Shown one piece after another: positions 33,025-41,394 of a stretch of DNA of 64,000 nucleotides. Where the stretch lies: assembly GCA_051750645.1 (NCBI GenBank), contig JBNJJW010000023.1:7921-71920 (forward strand), written 5' to 3'. Origin of the DNA: Bacillota bacterium (lineage in GTDB: Bacteria; Bacillota; Bacilli; Paenibacillales; Paenibacillaceae). Below the pieces are notes generated by a model. The model did no database searches. It worked only from the letters and a program-made list of their open reading frames with translations, and was not told the origin of the DNA. A program made the position numbers and the translations under genes. Position 1 is the first letter of the stretch; each line of letters begins with the position of its first letter.

Positions 33025-33348
33025 GACAAGGTTCCTCTACATGCCGATCCCTTTACACCTGAGGGTTCTTCTGCGCTGCACTCCAAGATCTTCGCTCGTT
33101 CCATGGTCTTCGCCGGGGCAGTCGTGGCTCGGCTCCCTCTTATCCCCTTCGGGTTCACTTTCACGATGCGGTAGGATTCATTTTCATTTACGGCTTGCAG
33201 ATTTGCTTCACCGCGCAGAGCGCGACTTTTCACAGGGCTTCAACCGCCGGATTTCGCCGACGTCTGCCTGCTAGCTACGGGGCGGCTTGGTCCCTAACCC
33301 GACTGAACTTGCATCAGTAAGTTGTGCCTAGCTTGGCTAGGCGCGCAC
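33025..33348 (-). mobile_element. Group II intron 5' portion (domain I), truncated
   Basis: Begins GTGCG at 33348 on the minus strand; homologous to 2265-2560; candidate EBS1 loop GCC-ACGACUGCCCC-GGC. Confidence 0.78.
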
Positions 33349-34086: not shown

Positions 34087-35244
34087 TTAATACACATCAC
34101 GTTGATAACGTCCTTGAGCTTGTATATCATTGAGATAAGCTTCCGCTGCTTCGCGGCTCATCGCACCTTCTTTTTCAATAACTTCGATAAGCGCGTTGTG
34201 GACATCTTTCGCCATATATTGCTTATCTCCGCAAACATAGAAGCAAGCTCCGTTTTCCAGCCATTCAAACAATTCCTTGCTGTTTTCAAGCATTTTATGC
34301 TGCACATAAACTTTTTGTGCCGTATCACGGGAGAACGCAGTTTCTATTCTTGTTAAGACCCCATCTTTTTGATATTGTTCCAACTCGTTCTGATAAAGGA
34401 AATCCGATGCCGCATGCTGGTCTCCAAAAAATAGCCATGCTCTGCCCGTTGCTTTAGTTACCGCACGTTCCTGGATAAAGGAACGGAACGGTGCAATGCC
34501 TGTCCCCGGACCAACCATAATAATATCTGTATCTTGAGACGCCGGCAAATGGAAGTGTTTATTAGGTTGAATAAATACGGGAAGCGTGTCTCCTTCTTTA
34601 AGACGTTCGGCAACTAAAACCGAACAAACGCCTTTACGTTCACGTCCGTGAGCCTTGTAGCGCATAGCACCGATGGTTAGATGCACTTCCTCGGGATTAG
34701 CGGCAATGCTGCTTGCAATTGAATAGAGACGCGGCGTCAATTTTCTTAAAAGAGACACCATTTCTTGGGCAGAAGCGTTCCATGGCCCGAAATCGCGCAG
34801 CAAATCAAGCAAGTCACGCCCGTAGATATATTCTTTCAGTTGGTTTGCATTTTCATTTAATAAAAGCTTGCTCAACTCTTCATTCTCGGTAAGTTCCACC
34901 GCTTGCTGTAAAATCTTTTTCGATAGCAGTGTAATTTCAAAGTAGGTTGTCAGCGCTTCTTTTAACGGAAGTGTATCGCCTTCCTGATTAATTGTTACTA
35001 ACGTTTCTTCGTCCCATTTCATTTCCTCAAACAGAGAAGCTACCAGTTCCGGATCATTATTCGGGATAATACCAAGAGCATCTCCTGGGACGTAGGAAAG
35101 GCTTGATCCTTTTAACGATAACTCAAGATGTCTTGTTTCTTTATTGGAGTCAGCTCCATTTAAATTTACATTTTTAATAACCTTCGCGTGAAATGGATTT
35201 TTTCTTGAGAATGTTGTTGCCGACTGATTTTCTGTAACTAGCAT
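34087..35244 (-). CDS. CysJ/P450-reductase-like FAD/NADPH oxidoreductase lacking the flavodoxin domain
   Basis: RLYSIASS, MVGPGTGIAPFRSF, FYVCGD, YQRDVY; starts at SRKNPF with no FMN domain. Confidence 0.88.
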   Translation of the reverse strand: MLVTENQSATTFSRKNPFHAKVIKNVNLNGADSNKETRHLELSLKGSSLSYVPGDALGIIPNNDPELVASLFEEMKWDEETLVTINQEGDTLPLKEALTTYFEITLLSKKILQQAVELTENEELSKLLLNENANQLKEYIYGRDLLDLLRDFGPWNASAQEMVSLLRKLTPRLYSIASSIAANPEEVHLTIGAMRYKAHGRERKGVCSVLVAERLKEGDTLPVFIQPNKHFHLPASQDTDIIMVGPGTGIAPFRSFIQERAVTKATGRAWLFFGDQHAASDFLYQNELEQYQKDGVLTRIETAFSRDTAQKVYVQHKMLENSKELFEWLENGACFYVCGDKQYMAKDVHNALIEVIEKEGAMSREAAEAYLNDIQAQGRYQRDVY

Positions 35245-35292: not shown

Positions 35293-35638
<346 letters not shown>

Positions 35639-35685: not shown

Positions 35686-36477
35686 TTAACTCTTGGTTTG
35701 AGCCAGCATTTTATCAACGGTTTTGCTCATCTGATTTAAAATAAACTGAGGTGCAACACGACTCATGAACTTCAGCGCACTGCTTTGGCCCGGCAGGATC
35801 TCAAAGCGATCCTTTTCCAAACCCTTGATTACGTACCTAACCATCTTACCGGCATCCATTGGCTTTACGCCTTTGATCTCGTCGCCATCAAAAGCTTCAA
35901 GTAAAGGGGTCTGAACAGCTGGAGGCGCCAATTCAAACACTTTAATATTAGTATATTTTAGCTGCATTCGCAGTGATTGTGTAAATGAATGAATACCGGC
36001 TTTCGTCGCACAATATACTGGCGATACCGGATAAGGAACAAATGCAAGTCCGGATGAGACATTCATAATCGCAGCGGACTTCTTAGCCTTTAAATGCGAT
36101 AAGAATTGTTTCACCATACGGATCGAACCGCTGAGGTTAATTTCAATCTCGCTATTGATATCCTCTAAGTCAACCTCTTTGGTATGAAGATTTAATGCAC
36201 GCATAACCCCAGCGTTATTGATCAGAAAATTCAGTTCTGGAAATTGACTGATTACTTTTTCAAAAAGGTCGGAAATGGCCTTTGGATCGCTTACATCACA
36301 CTGAAATGTGTGAACGTTTGGCAGTTTCTTTTTGGCTAGATCCAGTTTGGACTGATCCCGCCCGGTAATAATTACGGTGTTCCCAAGCTGAAGGAGCTGC
36401 GTGGCAAGCTCGAATCCAATCCCGGATGTTCCACCCGTTATAAGAATTGTGTTGGAATCCATTTTCATAAAAATCAA
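35686..36477 (-). CDS. Short-chain dehydrogenase/reductase (DltE-like)
   Basis: TGGTSGIG, NNAG, YCATK. Confidence 0.93.
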   Translation of the reverse strand: MIFMKMDSNTILITGGTSGIGFELATQLLQLGNTVIITGRDQSKLDLAKKKLPNVHTFQCDVSDPKAISDLFEKVISQFPELNFLINNAGVMRALNLHTKEVDLEDINSEIEINLSGSIRMVKQFLSHLKAKKSAAIMNVSSGLAFVPYPVSPVYCATKAGIHSFTQSLRMQLKYTNIKVFELAPPAVQTPLLEAFDGDEIKGVKPMDAGKMVRYVIKGLEKDRFEILPGQSSALKFMSRVAPQFILNQMSKTVDKMLAQTKS

Positions 36478-36531
36478 TCCTTTCTCTATAAATGATTTAT
36501 ATAGCGGCTTTGCATGCTTTACACACTCTTA

Positions 36532-37875
36532 TTAGGCAAAGCATTTCTCAAAGCTCATTAACAATTTGGGGTTCCCTTTGATCCGCAGTTTTCTTGTCAA
36601 CAATGCCGCAGCCGCATTTTTTTCCTTCGCCACGATCTTAAGCCACGTTTTGCTATCCACCGTAATCCGAATATCCGGCTTGCCGTGAAAACCGTCCCTA
36701 ATCTGGAGCTTATTGTCACGAATGTCGATTGTCGTTTGTCTCGTTTCATCTCCGGTGAATGTAAAATGATAGGTGCTGTTTAAACCCGTTGCCTGTTTCG
36801 GCTGGAATGCATGAGGCATCAGGGTGATCAAAAGGCGGATCGTATTCGGCCTGAGTCCATTCCCGACGCGTTTTACCGTTTTATGGGGAAAACGTTTCGC
36901 GACATACGCTTCCGCATCGGAGCCAGGGGTTACATACACCGTCTCCTCTTTGGCCTGCAACGGCTTTAATACATCATTCATGAACCTTTTACGGTCTTTC
37001 AGAAACGGCCCGATCACATCATCGCCCGCCGGACAAACCGATAAGCAATAAGCCGCTTTGTAGTTAGCCCCGAAACTCAAACTTTGCCACCAGGAAGTCG
37101 TTTCGGTTAGCGGTACTTCATTCCGGTACTCTTTGACGTTCTTGCTGTCCACGACCGTTTCCACAAAGTCGCTGAAACCGCCCATAAACTCACGATAATT
37201 GTGCGTAGCGCATGAAGAAAAATTAAATTGTCCGTCCGCACCGATCGCGCCCACAGGGCAGGCAGATACGCAAAGCTTGCATTCCAAACACGGGTTGTAG
37301 TCAATCGGCCGGTCTTCCTTGTTGACCCGGGCATCCATCATAACGGCGCCAAGCAGAATGAAGTTTCCGAATTTCGGATGAATCACGTTGCGATGGATGC
37401 CCATATGGCCTAACCCTGCAGCAACGGCAACAGGCTTGAGCGAAACGACCCAGGTCTTGCCGGGAAACTTATCCATCTCCATCGGGAAACCCATTGCTGC
37501 ATTTAAAGCCCGTATCCCTCGTGCTTCCAATGCAGACACGATGTGATGGGCTGTCTCCGCTACCTTATCGCCGGTATGATGAAATTCAATATTGGCAAGG
37601 GATCGCGCTGGTGTGCGGATCGGTTCTCGATTCATTCTGGCAACGAAACTGATCATCGTCTTAGCATGCGGAAATGCGGACAGAATGTCATCACGCTGAT
37701 CATCCAATTCGGAGCGTTCAATGGATATAACCCCGACATCGTCAGCTCCGGCCTCAAGACACAATTCACGTATCCACTCATAATCAACCGTCTCGTTGTT
37801 AAGAGTGGCGGATTGCGCAGAGGATTCGTAGTAACGCACAACTGTGGGATGTTTTTTCATATCGGCCACTTTCAT
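36532..37875 (-). CDS. QueG/reductive-dehalogenase-like Fe-S protein fused to an SCP2 sterol-carrier domain
   Basis: AVAAGLG..G...HPKFG, CLECKLCVSACP, YCLSVCP; C-terminal SCP2 pattern (YHFTFTG...PDIRITVD..TW...KLRIKGN). Confidence 0.8.
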   Translation of the reverse strand: MKVADMKKHPTVVRYYESSAQSATLNNETVDYEWIRELCLEAGADDVGVISIERSELDDQRDDILSAFPHAKTMISFVARMNREPIRTPARSLANIEFHHTGDKVAETAHHIVSALEARGIRALNAAMGFPMEMDKFPGKTWVVSLKPVAVAAGLGHMGIHRNVIHPKFGNFILLGAVMMDARVNKEDRPIDYNPCLECKLCVSACPVGAIGADGQFNFSSCATHNYREFMGGFSDFVETVVDSKNVKEYRNEVPLTETTSWWQSLSFGANYKAAYCLSVCPAGDDVIGPFLKDRKRFMNDVLKPLQAKEETVYVTPGSDAEAYVAKRFPHKTVKRVGNGLRPNTIRLLITLMPHAFQPKQATGLNSTYHFTFTGDETRQTTIDIRDNKLQIRDGFHGKPDIRITVDSKTWLKIVAKEKNAAAALLTRKLRIKGNPKLLMSFEKCFA

Positions 37876-37922
37876 CTATCCTTTCTCATTAAGTGTATAT
37901 ACACCTTTTCGGTGAAAAAAAA

Positions 37923-38405
37923 TTAATCTCGCTTGTTAAGCTTAACGATATCAGACAAATGACCAAGCAAACCTTTATAAGGGTCATCGCCCATATAGTC
38001 TCGAATACGGATTTGTGCCTGTTCCCATAACGGCAGCGCACGCTTAAGAAGGTCCCGGCCGTCGGGTGTCAGAGCAATAAATCGTTTCCTGCGATCCTCC
38101 CCTTCCGTGATCGACACCCATCCCTGTCTCTCAAGCGGCTTGAGATCCCGTGGCAATGTGGTCCTATCCATCAGAAGTATTTCGGAGAGAGTTGTGACGG
38201 TGACAGACCCGGCCTGTTCAAGTGCCATAAGGACAGACAATTGGGTTGCCCGAAGCCCGACTGGTCTTAAATATTCATCATATAAACTGGTAATGAACCG
38301 GGACGCTTTTCTTAAATTCAAGCAAGCGCACTCTGCTGTATAATCGGTCGCCCCTGAAAAATCTGAAGTTGAATTATTTTCTCTCATAAATATGAGTATA
38401 TACAC
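37923..38405 (-). CDS. MarR-family regulator
   Basis: CACLNLRKASR, MDRTTL.R.LKPL...GEDRR. Confidence 0.92.
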   Translation of the reverse strand: MYILIFMRENNSTSDFSGATDYTAECACLNLRKASRFITSLYDEYLRPVGLRATQLSVLMALEQAGSVTVTTLSEILLMDRTTLPRDLKPLERQGWVSITEGEDRRKRFIALTPDGRDLLKRALPLWEQAQIRIRDYMGDDPYKGLLGHLSDIVKLNKRD

Positions 38406-38437
38406 ATATTATATCGATGTCAATCTTTATAATCATC

Positions 38438-38656
38438 TTAAATATGGCTTACCTCTGCTAAAAAAACCATATCGAACTTGCCTTCTTCCGTTGCTGTTAA
38501 ACCATCTGTCCCGGATGCTCTGCCTAAGCCTAGATCAACTCTTCCGGGATGAAGAGCTTCAAGCAGGGTAAAGTTTTCTACCACTTTCAATGGACTATGA
38601 TTGGGCAGCATAATTCCTCCAGAACCAGCACGATTGGATATCAGTTGGTCAAACAA
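38438..38656 (-). pseudogene. Luciferase-like (LLM) monooxygenase internal fragment
   Basis: [36 protein letters not shown]; no N- or C-terminus. Confidence 0.75.
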
Positions 38657-39150: not shown

Positions 39151-40008
39151 TCAATGCGATGTAACACCGTTCAAAAAGTTCAAGGTCCGTGAAAACGCAT
39201 CGCGAGCATAATTAACCTCATACGTCGGGTTTGTATCGTTGAAGAATGCGTGTTTTGCATTTGGGTACACCACAGCTTCGAAAGATTTGCCATGCTTCTT
39301 CATTTCTTCTTCGAAACCAGGCACCAAATTGGTAATATTCAGATCTTGACCTCCATAGAAGCCGAGTATAGGGCACTGTATGTTGCCAATGTCTTGTTGC
39401 GGCGGACGGCCGTAAAATACAATGGAACCGGCGTGTTGCGGGTCCTGTATCGCTAACACAGCTGACAGAGCGCCACCCATGCAGAAGCCGACGGAAGTAA
39501 TCGGCATGCCTTTCGTTTTCTCAAATGTGTTACGTGCGTATGCAGCCGTGTCGGTCAAAATCCCGACTAAGCGTCCGAATTGCGTAGGGTTAAGCAGACC
39601 AAACAACGCATTAAGCGTCGCACGGAGAGGTTCCTGCCGTTCAGAAGGCTGGTTCAAGATCGCCGTTTCCCGCTCATGCGGATTGAACCATGCTGTATGA
39701 GGAATTGAATGAAGGAACGCTTTCGCTTCGTCCAGCCGTTCTTGTTGAATCGCCTCGGGCCGAACTCCGTTCTCGGCAAACAAATCGGGAGCGATGGCGA
39801 CATAACCGGCAGCCGCAAACCGCCGTGCGACATCTTGTATATGTTCTTCAACACCCCAAATTTCCTGAAGGATTAACACGGCTGGCCGCGGTTCATTTAC
39901 AGGCTCCATTGAAGCAAAGTAAGCGCTGCAGTTTCCTGTCTCACCGGCGAACGTTTTCCATTCTGTATGTACTGTCATAGTCACACACCTCTCCGAGTTA
40001 TTGAACAA
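39151..40008 (-). CDS. Dienelactone hydrolase family protein
   Basis: LQEIWGV, GFCMGG, YPNAKHAFFND. Confidence 0.92.
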   Translation of the reverse strand: MFNNSERCVTMTVHTEWKTFAGETGNCSAYFASMEPVNEPRPAVLILQEIWGVEEHIQDVARRFAAAGYVAIAPDLFAENGVRPEAIQQERLDEAKAFLHSIPHTAWFNPHERETAILNQPSERQEPLRATLNALFGLLNPTQFGRLVGILTDTAAYARNTFEKTKGMPITSVGFCMGGALSAVLAIQDPQHAGSIVFYGRPPQQDIGNIQCPILGFYGGQDLNITNLVPGFEEEMKKHGKSFEAVVYPNAKHAFFNDTNPTYEVNYARDAFSRTLNFLNGVTSH

Positions 40009-40300: not shown

Positions 40301-40798
40301 TCATTGGGCTTCCTCGTCGGCCGAGGGACCGTAGATGCCCGGCACCGGAATATCGAGAAGCCGCAAGTATACCCCGAGCTGCGCCCGGTGGTGGACCATG
40401 TGGCTTAATCCGAAGGTGCGGAGCGCGATCGCCCGCGGCTCGCGGAGGATGATATGGTCGCCGTGACGCAGCGTCCATTCCTCGCCGAGCGTTTTCTCAT
40501 CGCATTCGGCGAGCAACTTTTCAAACTTGCCGACGTTCGTGTCGAACTCCTCCAGAACGTCAGCGCGTTTTTCCAAAGGCGCCCGCCGCAGCGGCACGGT
40601 CGAAAGATCGAACTCCGGGTACTGAAGAATCGCAATTTGCCAGTTCAGCAGGTTGATCAGGTGCGTGGCCAGCCCGCCGAGCGTCATCGATTTCTCGTGC
40701 GGCTTCCACGACATATGCTCCTCTGGCAAGCGTTCCAGAATGCGGCGCGTAGTGGCCAGTTCATGCGTTGCGTCGCCGACGATCAGTTGTTTGACCAT
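40301..40798 (-). CDS. DinB/YfiT-family protein
   Basis: WKPHEKSMTLG.LA.H, HMVHHRAQL..YLRLL..PVP. Confidence 0.9.
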   Translation of the reverse strand: MVKQLIVGDATHELATTRRILERLPEEHMSWKPHEKSMTLGGLATHLINLLNWQIAILQYPEFDLSTVPLRRAPLEKRADVLEEFDTNVGKFEKLLAECDEKTLGEEWTLRHGDHIILREPRAIALRTFGLSHMVHHRAQLGVYLRLLDIPVPGIYGPSADEEAQ

Positions 40799-41394
40799 AA
40801 ATTCCTCTCCTCCCTTATGGTTTAGCATAAAATAAATTCCAGTCGAGTGACTCTCTGATTAACCGACTATGATAATGCGCTATTCTGCCGGAGAGCTGAA
40901 CAAGGGTATGCCTTCTCACTCCATAATTGTTCCCATCAAACGTGCCTGTAAAGTTTTCAATCGGTATCCAACGGGTAATGAACATATTGATAAATCATAT
41001 GGCCGTCTTTACGGATCCGCATATACATGTGTACGTAATCCAACCTGGCCCAATAAAGCAGTTACACTTACTACTATTACCAAAATCAATTTTAACTTCA
41101 TAATTCCCCCCTCAAAGCTATGTTTGAGACGTGGGTTAATACTACTCCGAAACTATGATACATTATGTATACTACAAAATATGTAAAAATTTGTCGTGTT
41201 AAAATAATCTCTTTTTAATGCCTCGGTTTTACTTGGCTGCTTTACAGCTGCGTGACGCGCTCACGCAAGCACCCACCGTCATCATTTAGGGATATAAAAC
41301 AAAAAAGCTTGATTTCTCAAGCTTTCGCCAATTCAATTATGTCCCCGCCTATTTGTCGTTAGACATCGATTTCATTTATTTCTAATCGAATATC

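Follow-up and report, generated by a model that had tools for sequence, protein, structure and literature searches.

A MarR-linked iron–sulfur/SCP2 fusion enzyme in Paenibacillaceae: an apparent third branch, as yet uncharacterised, among the class III cobalamin enzymes

To our knowledge, only two activities have been assigned to the class III cobalamin enzymes, namely reductive dehalogenation by the RdhA proteins and the reduction of epoxyqueuosine by QueG. Those who solved the QueG structure expected this class to contain more families but were unable to find them, the class lacking a B12-binding motif (PMC4646009). Here, we describe a candidate for such a family in a 64,000-nt stretch of a Paenibacillaceae genome (GenBank assembly GCA_051750645.1, contig JBNJJW010000023.1, positions 7,921–71,920), the whole of which is hereinafter termed the window. 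In it, the genes for a MarR-type repressor, for a 447-residue protein joining an RdhA/QueG-like iron–sulfur (Fe-S) core to an SCP2 lipid-binding domain (hereinafter the enzyme), and for a short-chain dehydrogenase (SDR) lie head to tail on the minus strand (Table 1), as do the redox genes that follow them. An initial annotation of this DNA had read the first three genes as an operon for an uncharacterised B12-dependent reductase of a lipophilic substrate, with a MarR regulator of the kind found in dehalogenase operons. The three genes are where it placed them and the idea of a B12-dependent reductase is retained here; however, the likely role moves from halo-organic catabolism towards the oxidative-stress response, as the regulator appears to be of the type of Mycobacterium tuberculosis MosR. 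On balance, we lean towards an oxidant-inducible detoxification or repair module whose enzyme is a reductase of a lipophilic, probably oxidised, substrate and is probably corrinoid-dependent. The MarR–enzyme pair seems to represent a third branch of class III, as yet uncharacterised, and a large conserved family behind a recognisable switch of the oxidation-sensing type offers a testable candidate for a third class III activity.

Sequence models place the enzyme at a distance from both known families. It scores 53.9 bits against the QueG model TIGR00276 (cut-off 200), over model positions 131–208 of 337, and 34.4 bits against the RdhA model TIGR02486 (cut-off 160.35), both matches being weak and confined to residues 144–223. 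The SCP2 domain (PF02036) is recognised at residues 360–446 with 51.9 bits against a gathering cut-off of 21.3, and PF14864 also matches this C-terminal domain. An AlphaFold2 model built from 54 homologues (per-residue confidence, pLDDT, 94.5; predicted template-modelling score, pTM, 0.89) returned only reductive dehalogenases or QueG as leading Foldseek matches. In VIA-align, the highest scores are those of the dehalogenases PceA (4ur3, 8q4h; Z 18.0 over 236 residues at a root-mean-square deviation, rmsd, of 4.0) and NpRdhA (4ras, 6zy1; Z 16.8); QueG (5d08, 5d6s) reaches Z 15.9 over 206 residues and the B12 chaperones CblD/MMACHC reach Z ~11, with no nitroreductase among the 50 matches listed. 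The alignment with NpRdhA extends to residue 342 and that with QueG only to residue 288. Residues 343–447 superpose on the C-terminal domains of alkylsulfatases and on human SCP-2L (Z 14–16, rmsd 1.8–2.4, ~105 residues; for SCP-2L, Z 14.4 and rmsd 2.2 over 104 residues). The modelled enzyme runs from a nitroreductase-type cofactor domain through a two-cluster ferredoxin module with an interrupted second motif, which is the arrangement of the class III superfamily, and then through a short linker to a genuine SCP2 domain. By its predicted fold this cytoplasmic protein belongs to the class III cobalamin (RdhA/QueG) superfamily, in agreement with the initial description of a QueG/RdhA-like enzyme fused to a sterol-carrier domain.

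The first Fe-S motif of the ferredoxin module is complete (C196xxC199xxC202xxxC206P). The second is split, as had been noticed from the sequence, with C222 separated by a gap of 54 residues from C277xxxC281P. What the initial annotation overlooked is that a ligand is missing: position 274, where a cysteine is expected, is an alanine, and the module has seven cysteines as compared to the eight that ligate two [4Fe-4S] clusters in class III enzymes. Of the 199 core-clade sequences, 198 carry Ala or Ser at this position; a cysteine stands there in 24 of the 62 divergent representatives and in a Paenibacillus protein of 88% identity, and the relative P0008 is among the proteins that have it; hence, the ligand is interchangeable rather than a defining catalytic feature. 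As judged from ferredoxin topology and from the description of QueG cluster II as the cluster shielded by cobalamin (PMC4646009), the three-cysteine cluster would adjoin the presumed cofactor; it could be of the [3Fe-4S] type, or of the [4Fe-4S] type with one iron left open.

Residues G43, D46, G48, E97, P131, K147, the AAGLGxMG motif, R162 and H166 are invariant or nearly so across the family, as are H225, Y227, R228, E258, W263 and Q264 of the ferredoxin insert. In three independent alignments K147, which is at least 90% conserved, falls on Arg141 of QueG, albeit as Lys and not Arg; Arg141 sits under the corrin and its loss lowers activity (PMC5175355). AAGLGxMG aligns with RAGIGxxxK of QueG and R228 with Gln220, an active-site residue of QueG (PMC5175355). 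At the other end of the protein, Cys445 (codon 36541–36543), three residues from the C-terminus and part of a CFP motif at the end of SCP2, is conserved in most SCP2-bearing members.

MosR senses H2O2 via a Cys10–Cys12 disulfide and derepresses its own gene and rv1050, which codes for a short-chain dehydrogenase (PMC5823404, PMC11351531); its operator consensus is gTGTAnnTACAc (PMC9506551, table 2). Among solved structures, MosR (4fx0/4fx4) is the best match of the marR product (E 1.1e-19, as compared to 1e-7 for the next), and its ECAC motif aligns with E19-C20-A21-C22 of the regulator, which thus bears the N-terminal Cys-x-Cys. Both operators of the locus fit the MosR consensus, one on the repressor's own promoter and one before its target gene. 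Operator 1 is kept in the related loci L008, L009 and L092–L094, and operator 2 in every Paenibacillaceae locus, L007 included, despite diverged flanks. We collected 80 loci of enzyme-gene relatives from genomes of many phyla and aligned 36 of the neighbouring regulators. A homologous MarR lies directly 5′ of the enzyme gene, on the same strand, in 39 of the 80 loci (more than 10 phyla). The first sensor cysteine is present in 35 of the 36 aligned regulators, 23 having the full Cys-x-Cys and 11 the first cysteine alone. The motif TGTANNTACA occurs in 21 of the 39 MarR-linked loci as against one of the 41 others, located at two constant positions relative to the enzyme start (−15 to −66 and ~−520 to −640), other phyla included, and is 43-fold denser in the 930 bp around that start (−900 to +30, including marR) than in the rest of the loci. 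Thus, as far as sequence can tell, the regulator is a thiol-based oxidation sensor of the MosR type that has a conserved operator of its own, and this replaces the ligand-type MarR of dehalogenase operons that the initial annotation had envisaged.

The enzyme has more than 7,900 close homologues, which form 3,775 clusters at 50% identity. They are named merely ‘SCP2 domain protein’, ‘ferredoxin’ or similar, with some sources annotating relatives as QueG, and our literature searches for QueG-like, RdhA-like and SCP2 proteins found no description of the family. Homologues in Planctomycetota, Acidobacteriota, Nitrospirota, Cyanobacteriota, Actinomycetota and others are ~60–65% identical to the enzyme. 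Within the Paenibacillaceae the gene is rare, being present in four of 151 genomes searched; in the tree, a single, well-supported, long-stemmed clade unites these copies, and most phyla group together. Where the MarR is missing, the locus often has a TetR (11) or a divergent HxlR (10) regulator. SDR homologues of 42–46% identity adjoin the enzyme gene in eight Acidobacteriota loci. The widely conserved unit is therefore the MarR–enzyme pair only, with the SDR as a frequent companion and the ferredoxin and CysJ-type reductase genes as local additions. Versions of ~330 residues without SCP2 exist (e.g., P0143 and P0149), indicating that the catalytic core can stand alone, and the 571-residue relative P0138 has a C-terminal cupin domain instead of SCP2. 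In one Nitrospirota locus (L001:9428–11547), a family member without a MarR has a Caroten_synth (PF04240) gene and then a radical-SAM/DUF3463 gene behind it, neighbours that possibly link it to isoprenoid lipids.

Two relatives (P0122 and P0123) are natural fusions with an FAD_binding_6/NAD_binding_1/Fer2 ([2Fe-2S]) reductase, the module being C-terminal in one and N-terminal in the other, and in three Streptomyces loci a separate FAD/[2Fe-2S] reductase is the next gene after the enzyme. Self-sufficient catabolic dehalogenases carry comparable reductase fusions (PMC10463259). Judging by these fusions and adjoining genes, the family consumes NAD(P)H-derived electrons, which is in keeping with the NADPH/ferredoxin partners originally suggested. 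In the window, redox genes do follow the SDR gene: a Fer4_13 ferredoxin, the stub of a YumC-type reductase gene and a CysJ-type FAD/NADPH module, of which the ferredoxin and the CysJ-type reductase could act as electron suppliers. As for the cofactor, two cobalamin riboswitches are present in the genome, as is a canonical queG, whose product depends on B12. This B12 economy, together with the fold, the K147 alignment and the reductase fusions, makes a corrinoid the most likely catalytic cofactor.

Hence, we propose the following for the oxidant-inducible module. Under reducing conditions, a dimer of the MosR-type repressor would occupy the two TGTATATACA operators, one over the marR −10 box and the other immediately 5′ of the enzyme gene, and silence marR, the enzyme gene and the SDR gene; oxidation of Cys20/Cys22 would release it. 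Electrons from NAD(P)H, arriving here likely via the CysJ-type reductase and ferredoxin and in relatives via the fused or adjoining FAD/[2Fe-2S] reductase, would pass to the distal cluster, then to the proximal cluster with its three cysteines, and from there to the cofactor of the active site, which is most likely a base-off corrinoid. There, an oxygen or other leaving group would be reductively removed from a lipophilic substrate held by SCP2, with the SDR catalyzing an adjoining alcohol/ketone step. Confirmation of the corrinoid would tie B12 to the way in which common soil and water bacteria defend themselves against oxidative stress. More speculatively, and with low confidence, we posit that the family as a whole is a widespread lipid-repair enzyme, namely an oxidant-induced reductive de-epoxidase or deoxygenase, either corrinoid-dependent or of the open-iron Fe-S type, that applies QueG-like chemistry to a substrate lifted from the membrane by SCP2 and so restores oxidised membrane lipids or isoprenoid quinones (e.g., fatty-acyl, carotenoid or quinone epoxides). 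Were this lipid-repair proposal true, the class III B12 enzymes would gain a third functional branch in this family, and the oxidative-stress response a new arm.

Several observations weigh against the oxidant-inducible corrinoid reductase. An oxygen-sensitive cofactor set would be an odd choice for an oxidant-induced gene. The cluster beside the presumed corrin is without one cysteine ligand in nearly the whole core clade, a loss that could entail different chemistry. A tyrosine lying over the corrin is reportedly shared by the three solved enzymes, PceA, NpRdhA and QueG (PMC4646009), but in the alignment to D. hafniense PceA it falls on the variable position ~102, and the place that probably matches the D-Y-H motif and catalytic Asp134 of QueG reads E97-F98-H99, with E97 nearly invariant and Phe dominant. 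PceA pairs its Tyr246 with an Arg/Lys partner; the enzyme instead has the conserved Y227–R228 pair on the ferredoxin insert, which may have taken over the role of proton donor. Class III enzymes offer no sequence motif for corrinoid binding (PMC4646009), no B12 gene or riboswitch adjoins the operon, and there is no cobalamin riboswitch within the window. Only in the Paenibacillus harenae lineage do the SDR, ferredoxin and CysJ-type genes all occur beside the enzyme gene. Finally, neither sigma-70 promoter prediction nor inspection by eye yielded a convincing, strong internal promoter 5′ of the enzyme gene, which leaves the role of operator 2 unclear.

Some of these same observations feed the rival that survives best, although we consider it rather doubtful: the fold would be as described but corrinoid-free, with the B12 pocket empty or filled by a flavin, and the substrate would be bound by the open iron of the proximal cluster for a reductive deoxygenation of the IspH/IspG/QueH type. 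The near-universal replacement of Cys274 in the core clade is its main support. By ferredoxin topology and by the account of QueG, the cluster with the lost ligand faces the corrin site, and the cofactor domain is of the nitroreductase type (PMC4646009); the want of an invariant Tyr at the place aligned with that of RdhA/QueG and the commonness of the family in aerobes point the same way. Against it stand the cysteine retained at position 274 in divergent relatives and in the close Paenibacillus protein, the lysine that aligns with Arg141 of QueG along with the conserved glycine-rich motif, and the fold matches, which include CblD/MMACHC but, among those listed, no nitroreductase. A corrinoid-dependent reductase accordingly remains our preferred reading of the enzyme.

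We regard it as improbable that the enzyme is a reductive dehalogenase of the catabolic (non-respiratory) kind with lipophilic organohalides as substrates. RdhAs do give the best fold matches, the reductase fusions of relatives resemble those of self-sufficient catabolic RdhAs (PMC10463259), and the enzyme is cytoplasmic, with no twin-arginine (TAT) motif at its N-terminus and, in its gene neighbourhood, no adjoining small membrane-protein gene and no RdhB. Nevertheless, the dehalogenase model is missed by a wide gap (34.4 bits against a cut-off of 160), the RdhA tyrosine aligns with a variable position, and the type of regulator would, by analogy with MosR, sense oxidation and not a substrate. 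Moreover, an identity of ~60% over more than 10 phyla, mostly of soil and water aerobes that do not halorespire, speaks for an endogenous substrate common to all of them rather than variable xenobiotics. Still less probable is a non-catalytic Fe-S protein, serving as a lipid-binding redox sensor or in lipid transfer: SCP2 domains are carriers and an Fe-S cluster with a labile site could sense oxidants, but a steady supply of electrons is implied by the relatives fused to complete NAD(P)H-FAD-[2Fe-2S] reductases, versions without SCP2 exist and the pocket-lining residues are strongly conserved. A second epoxyqueuosine reductase, i.e., a paralogue of QueG, is hardly tenable: although the best named sequence matches are to QueG and some relatives bear that name, the QueG model is matched at 53.9 bits against 200 and over positions 131–208 only, the HEAT-like tRNA-binding domain of QueG (PMC5175355) is absent with an SCP2 fold in its stead, E-F-H probably replaces D-Y-H, the gene is confined to four of 151 Paenibacillaceae genomes searched, and the check for a separate canonical queG advised by the initial annotation found one on another contig (415.6 bits), so that the Fe-S/SCP2 gene, itself single-copy in the genome, is not the housekeeping QueG.

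Table 1. Features of the MarR–enzyme locus, with positions counted from the first base of the window
Feature	Position	Strand	Remarks
marR promoter	38395..38423	-	−35 TTGACA, 17-bp spacer, −10 TATACT; 11/12 matches
Operator 1, GTGTATATAC (as 12-mer GTGTATATACTC)	38396..38405		Overlaps the −10 box of the marR promoter
marR, putative MosR-type MarR repressor, 154 aa	37923..38387	-	Pfam MarR/MarR_2; Cys20-x-Cys22 in helix α-1
Operator 2, perfect palindrome GTGTATATACAC	37893..37904		18 bp 5′ of the enzyme start codon
Fe-S/SCP2 enzyme gene, 447 aa	36532..37875	-	Start uncertain within 37860–37875
Enzyme residues ~28–190, nitroreductase-like domain of the RdhA/QueG (corrinoid-binding) type	37306..37794	-	Structural alignment
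Enzyme residues 191–285, two-cluster ferredoxin module, 54-residue insert, seven Cys	37021..37305	-	
Enzyme residues 286–342, helical and small α/β linker	36850..37020	-	Common to the C-terminal part of NpRdhA
Enzyme residues 343–447, SCP2 lipid-binding domain	36535..36849	-	PF02036 and fold match
Classical SDR, 260 aa	35686..36468	-	adh_short, 168.6 bits
Single-cluster ferredoxin, Fer4_13	35402..35638	-	No obvious ribosome-binding site
YumC-type ferredoxin-NADP reductase gene, 5′ remnant, 44 codons (~31 homologous)	35293..35427	-	
CysJ-type FAD/NADPH reductase module, 385 aa, without flavodoxin domain	34087..35244	-	FAD_binding_1 and NAD_binding_1

Some gene starts require comment. The GTG at 38405, first listed as the start of marR, falls within the near-consensus TTGACA-17-TATACT promoter and is disfavoured for that reason; the ATG at 38387, giving 154 residues, is more likely the true start. 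As this ATG lies 7 nt past the −10 box and is without a Shine-Dalgarno sequence, the marR mRNA may be leaderless. For the enzyme, the P. harenae annotation starts at Met6. The SDR open reading frame begins at TTG 36477, and the P. harenae call of 260 residues, from ATG 36468, is probably the correct one. The DNA of the window stems from a close relative of P. harenae, and gene order in the P. harenae genome is identical to that of the locus in the window. The CysJ-type module scores 444.8 bits against NF004859 (cut-off 432). The YumC-type stub shares 80% DNA identity with the first 107 bases of a Priestia megaterium gene for a 330-residue NAD(P)/FAD oxidoreductase, and past this homologous part it continues into unrelated sequence.

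Terminator prediction across the gene cluster returned no terminator-like site between the genes. Directly 3′ of the marR stop, an 8-T run (37926–37936, minus strand) lies nine bases past an AT-rich 12-bp palindrome, GTTAAGCTTAAC; though no standard terminator, it may dampen read-through into the enzyme gene. Logan contigs from soil and rhizosphere RNA libraries, which derive from relatives 90–95% alike, span parts of marR and of the enzyme, SDR, ferredoxin and CysJ-type genes, one of them bridging the last two; we did not use them as evidence of expression or co-transcription, and we set aside contig joints with short sides in which the SDR or the enzyme gene is skipped. A relative's contig from a soil RNA library has 99 other letters in place of the 216 bases between the CysJ-type and ferredoxin genes. 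Just 3′ of the CysJ-type gene, 33183–33320 (minus strand) is a full-length match to the group II intron model D1-D4-4 (RF02003, 72 bits). The corresponding place in P. harenae DSM 16969 is taken by a GH9 cellulase gene, the two genomes differing there, and a mobile intron may have taken part in a local rearrangement. On the other side of the locus, a 72-codon open reading frame directly 5′ of the marR promoter (38438–38656, minus strand) codes for what, by eye, resembles a stretch from inside a luciferase-like (LLM-class) flavin monooxygenase; it is probably what remains of a gene. Further upstream, on the minus strand and outside the operon, lie genes for a dienelactone hydrolase (39151–40008) and a DinB-family protein (40301–40828), both typical of detoxification or stress.

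Set beside the described systems, the enzyme shares several features with QueG. Both are cytoplasmic, and in both an N-terminal cofactor domain of the nitroreductase type precedes a ferredoxin module with an insert in its second motif; they have an AGxG motif in common, and K147 of the enzyme, a basic residue, aligns with the Arg141 position. They differ in that SCP2 occupies the place of the HEAT-like tRNA-binding domain of QueG (PMC5175355), that the insert is 54 rather than 26 residues long, that E-F-H probably stands for D-Y-H and seven cysteines stand for eight, and that the gene lies under what is, by analogy, a redox-sensing-type repressor. The RdhAs PceA and NpRdhA give the top fold scores, the sequence alignment with D. 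hafniense PceA reaching back to residue 68, and relatives of the enzyme with FAD/NAD/[2Fe-2S] reductase fusions resemble the self-sufficient catabolic RdhAs (PMC10463259). In contrast to RdhAs, the enzyme scores below the dehalogenase cut-off, is without TAT motif and RdhB, has no conserved Tyr at the aligned place and has gained SCP2; its family shows high conservation from one phylum to another, unlike the very diverse RdhAs.

The C-terminal domain has its counterpart in the alkylsulfatases SdsA1 and Pisa1 (2cfz, 2yhe), which likewise carry an SCP2-fold domain at the end of a catalytic core (Z 15–16, rmsd ~1.8, 107 residues). That core, however, is a metallo-β-lactamase, and neither it nor its chemistry is related to that of the enzyme. 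On the regulatory side, the repressor resembles MosR (Rv1049) in its N-terminal Cys-x-Cys, in the TGTAnnTACA operator core and in having one site on its own promoter. The MosR target rv1050 is a short-chain dehydrogenase, and the operon described here also includes an SDR; unlike in the MosR system, the first regulated gene here would be that of the Fe-S/SCP2 enzyme, and its response to oxidants is proposed by analogy with MosR.

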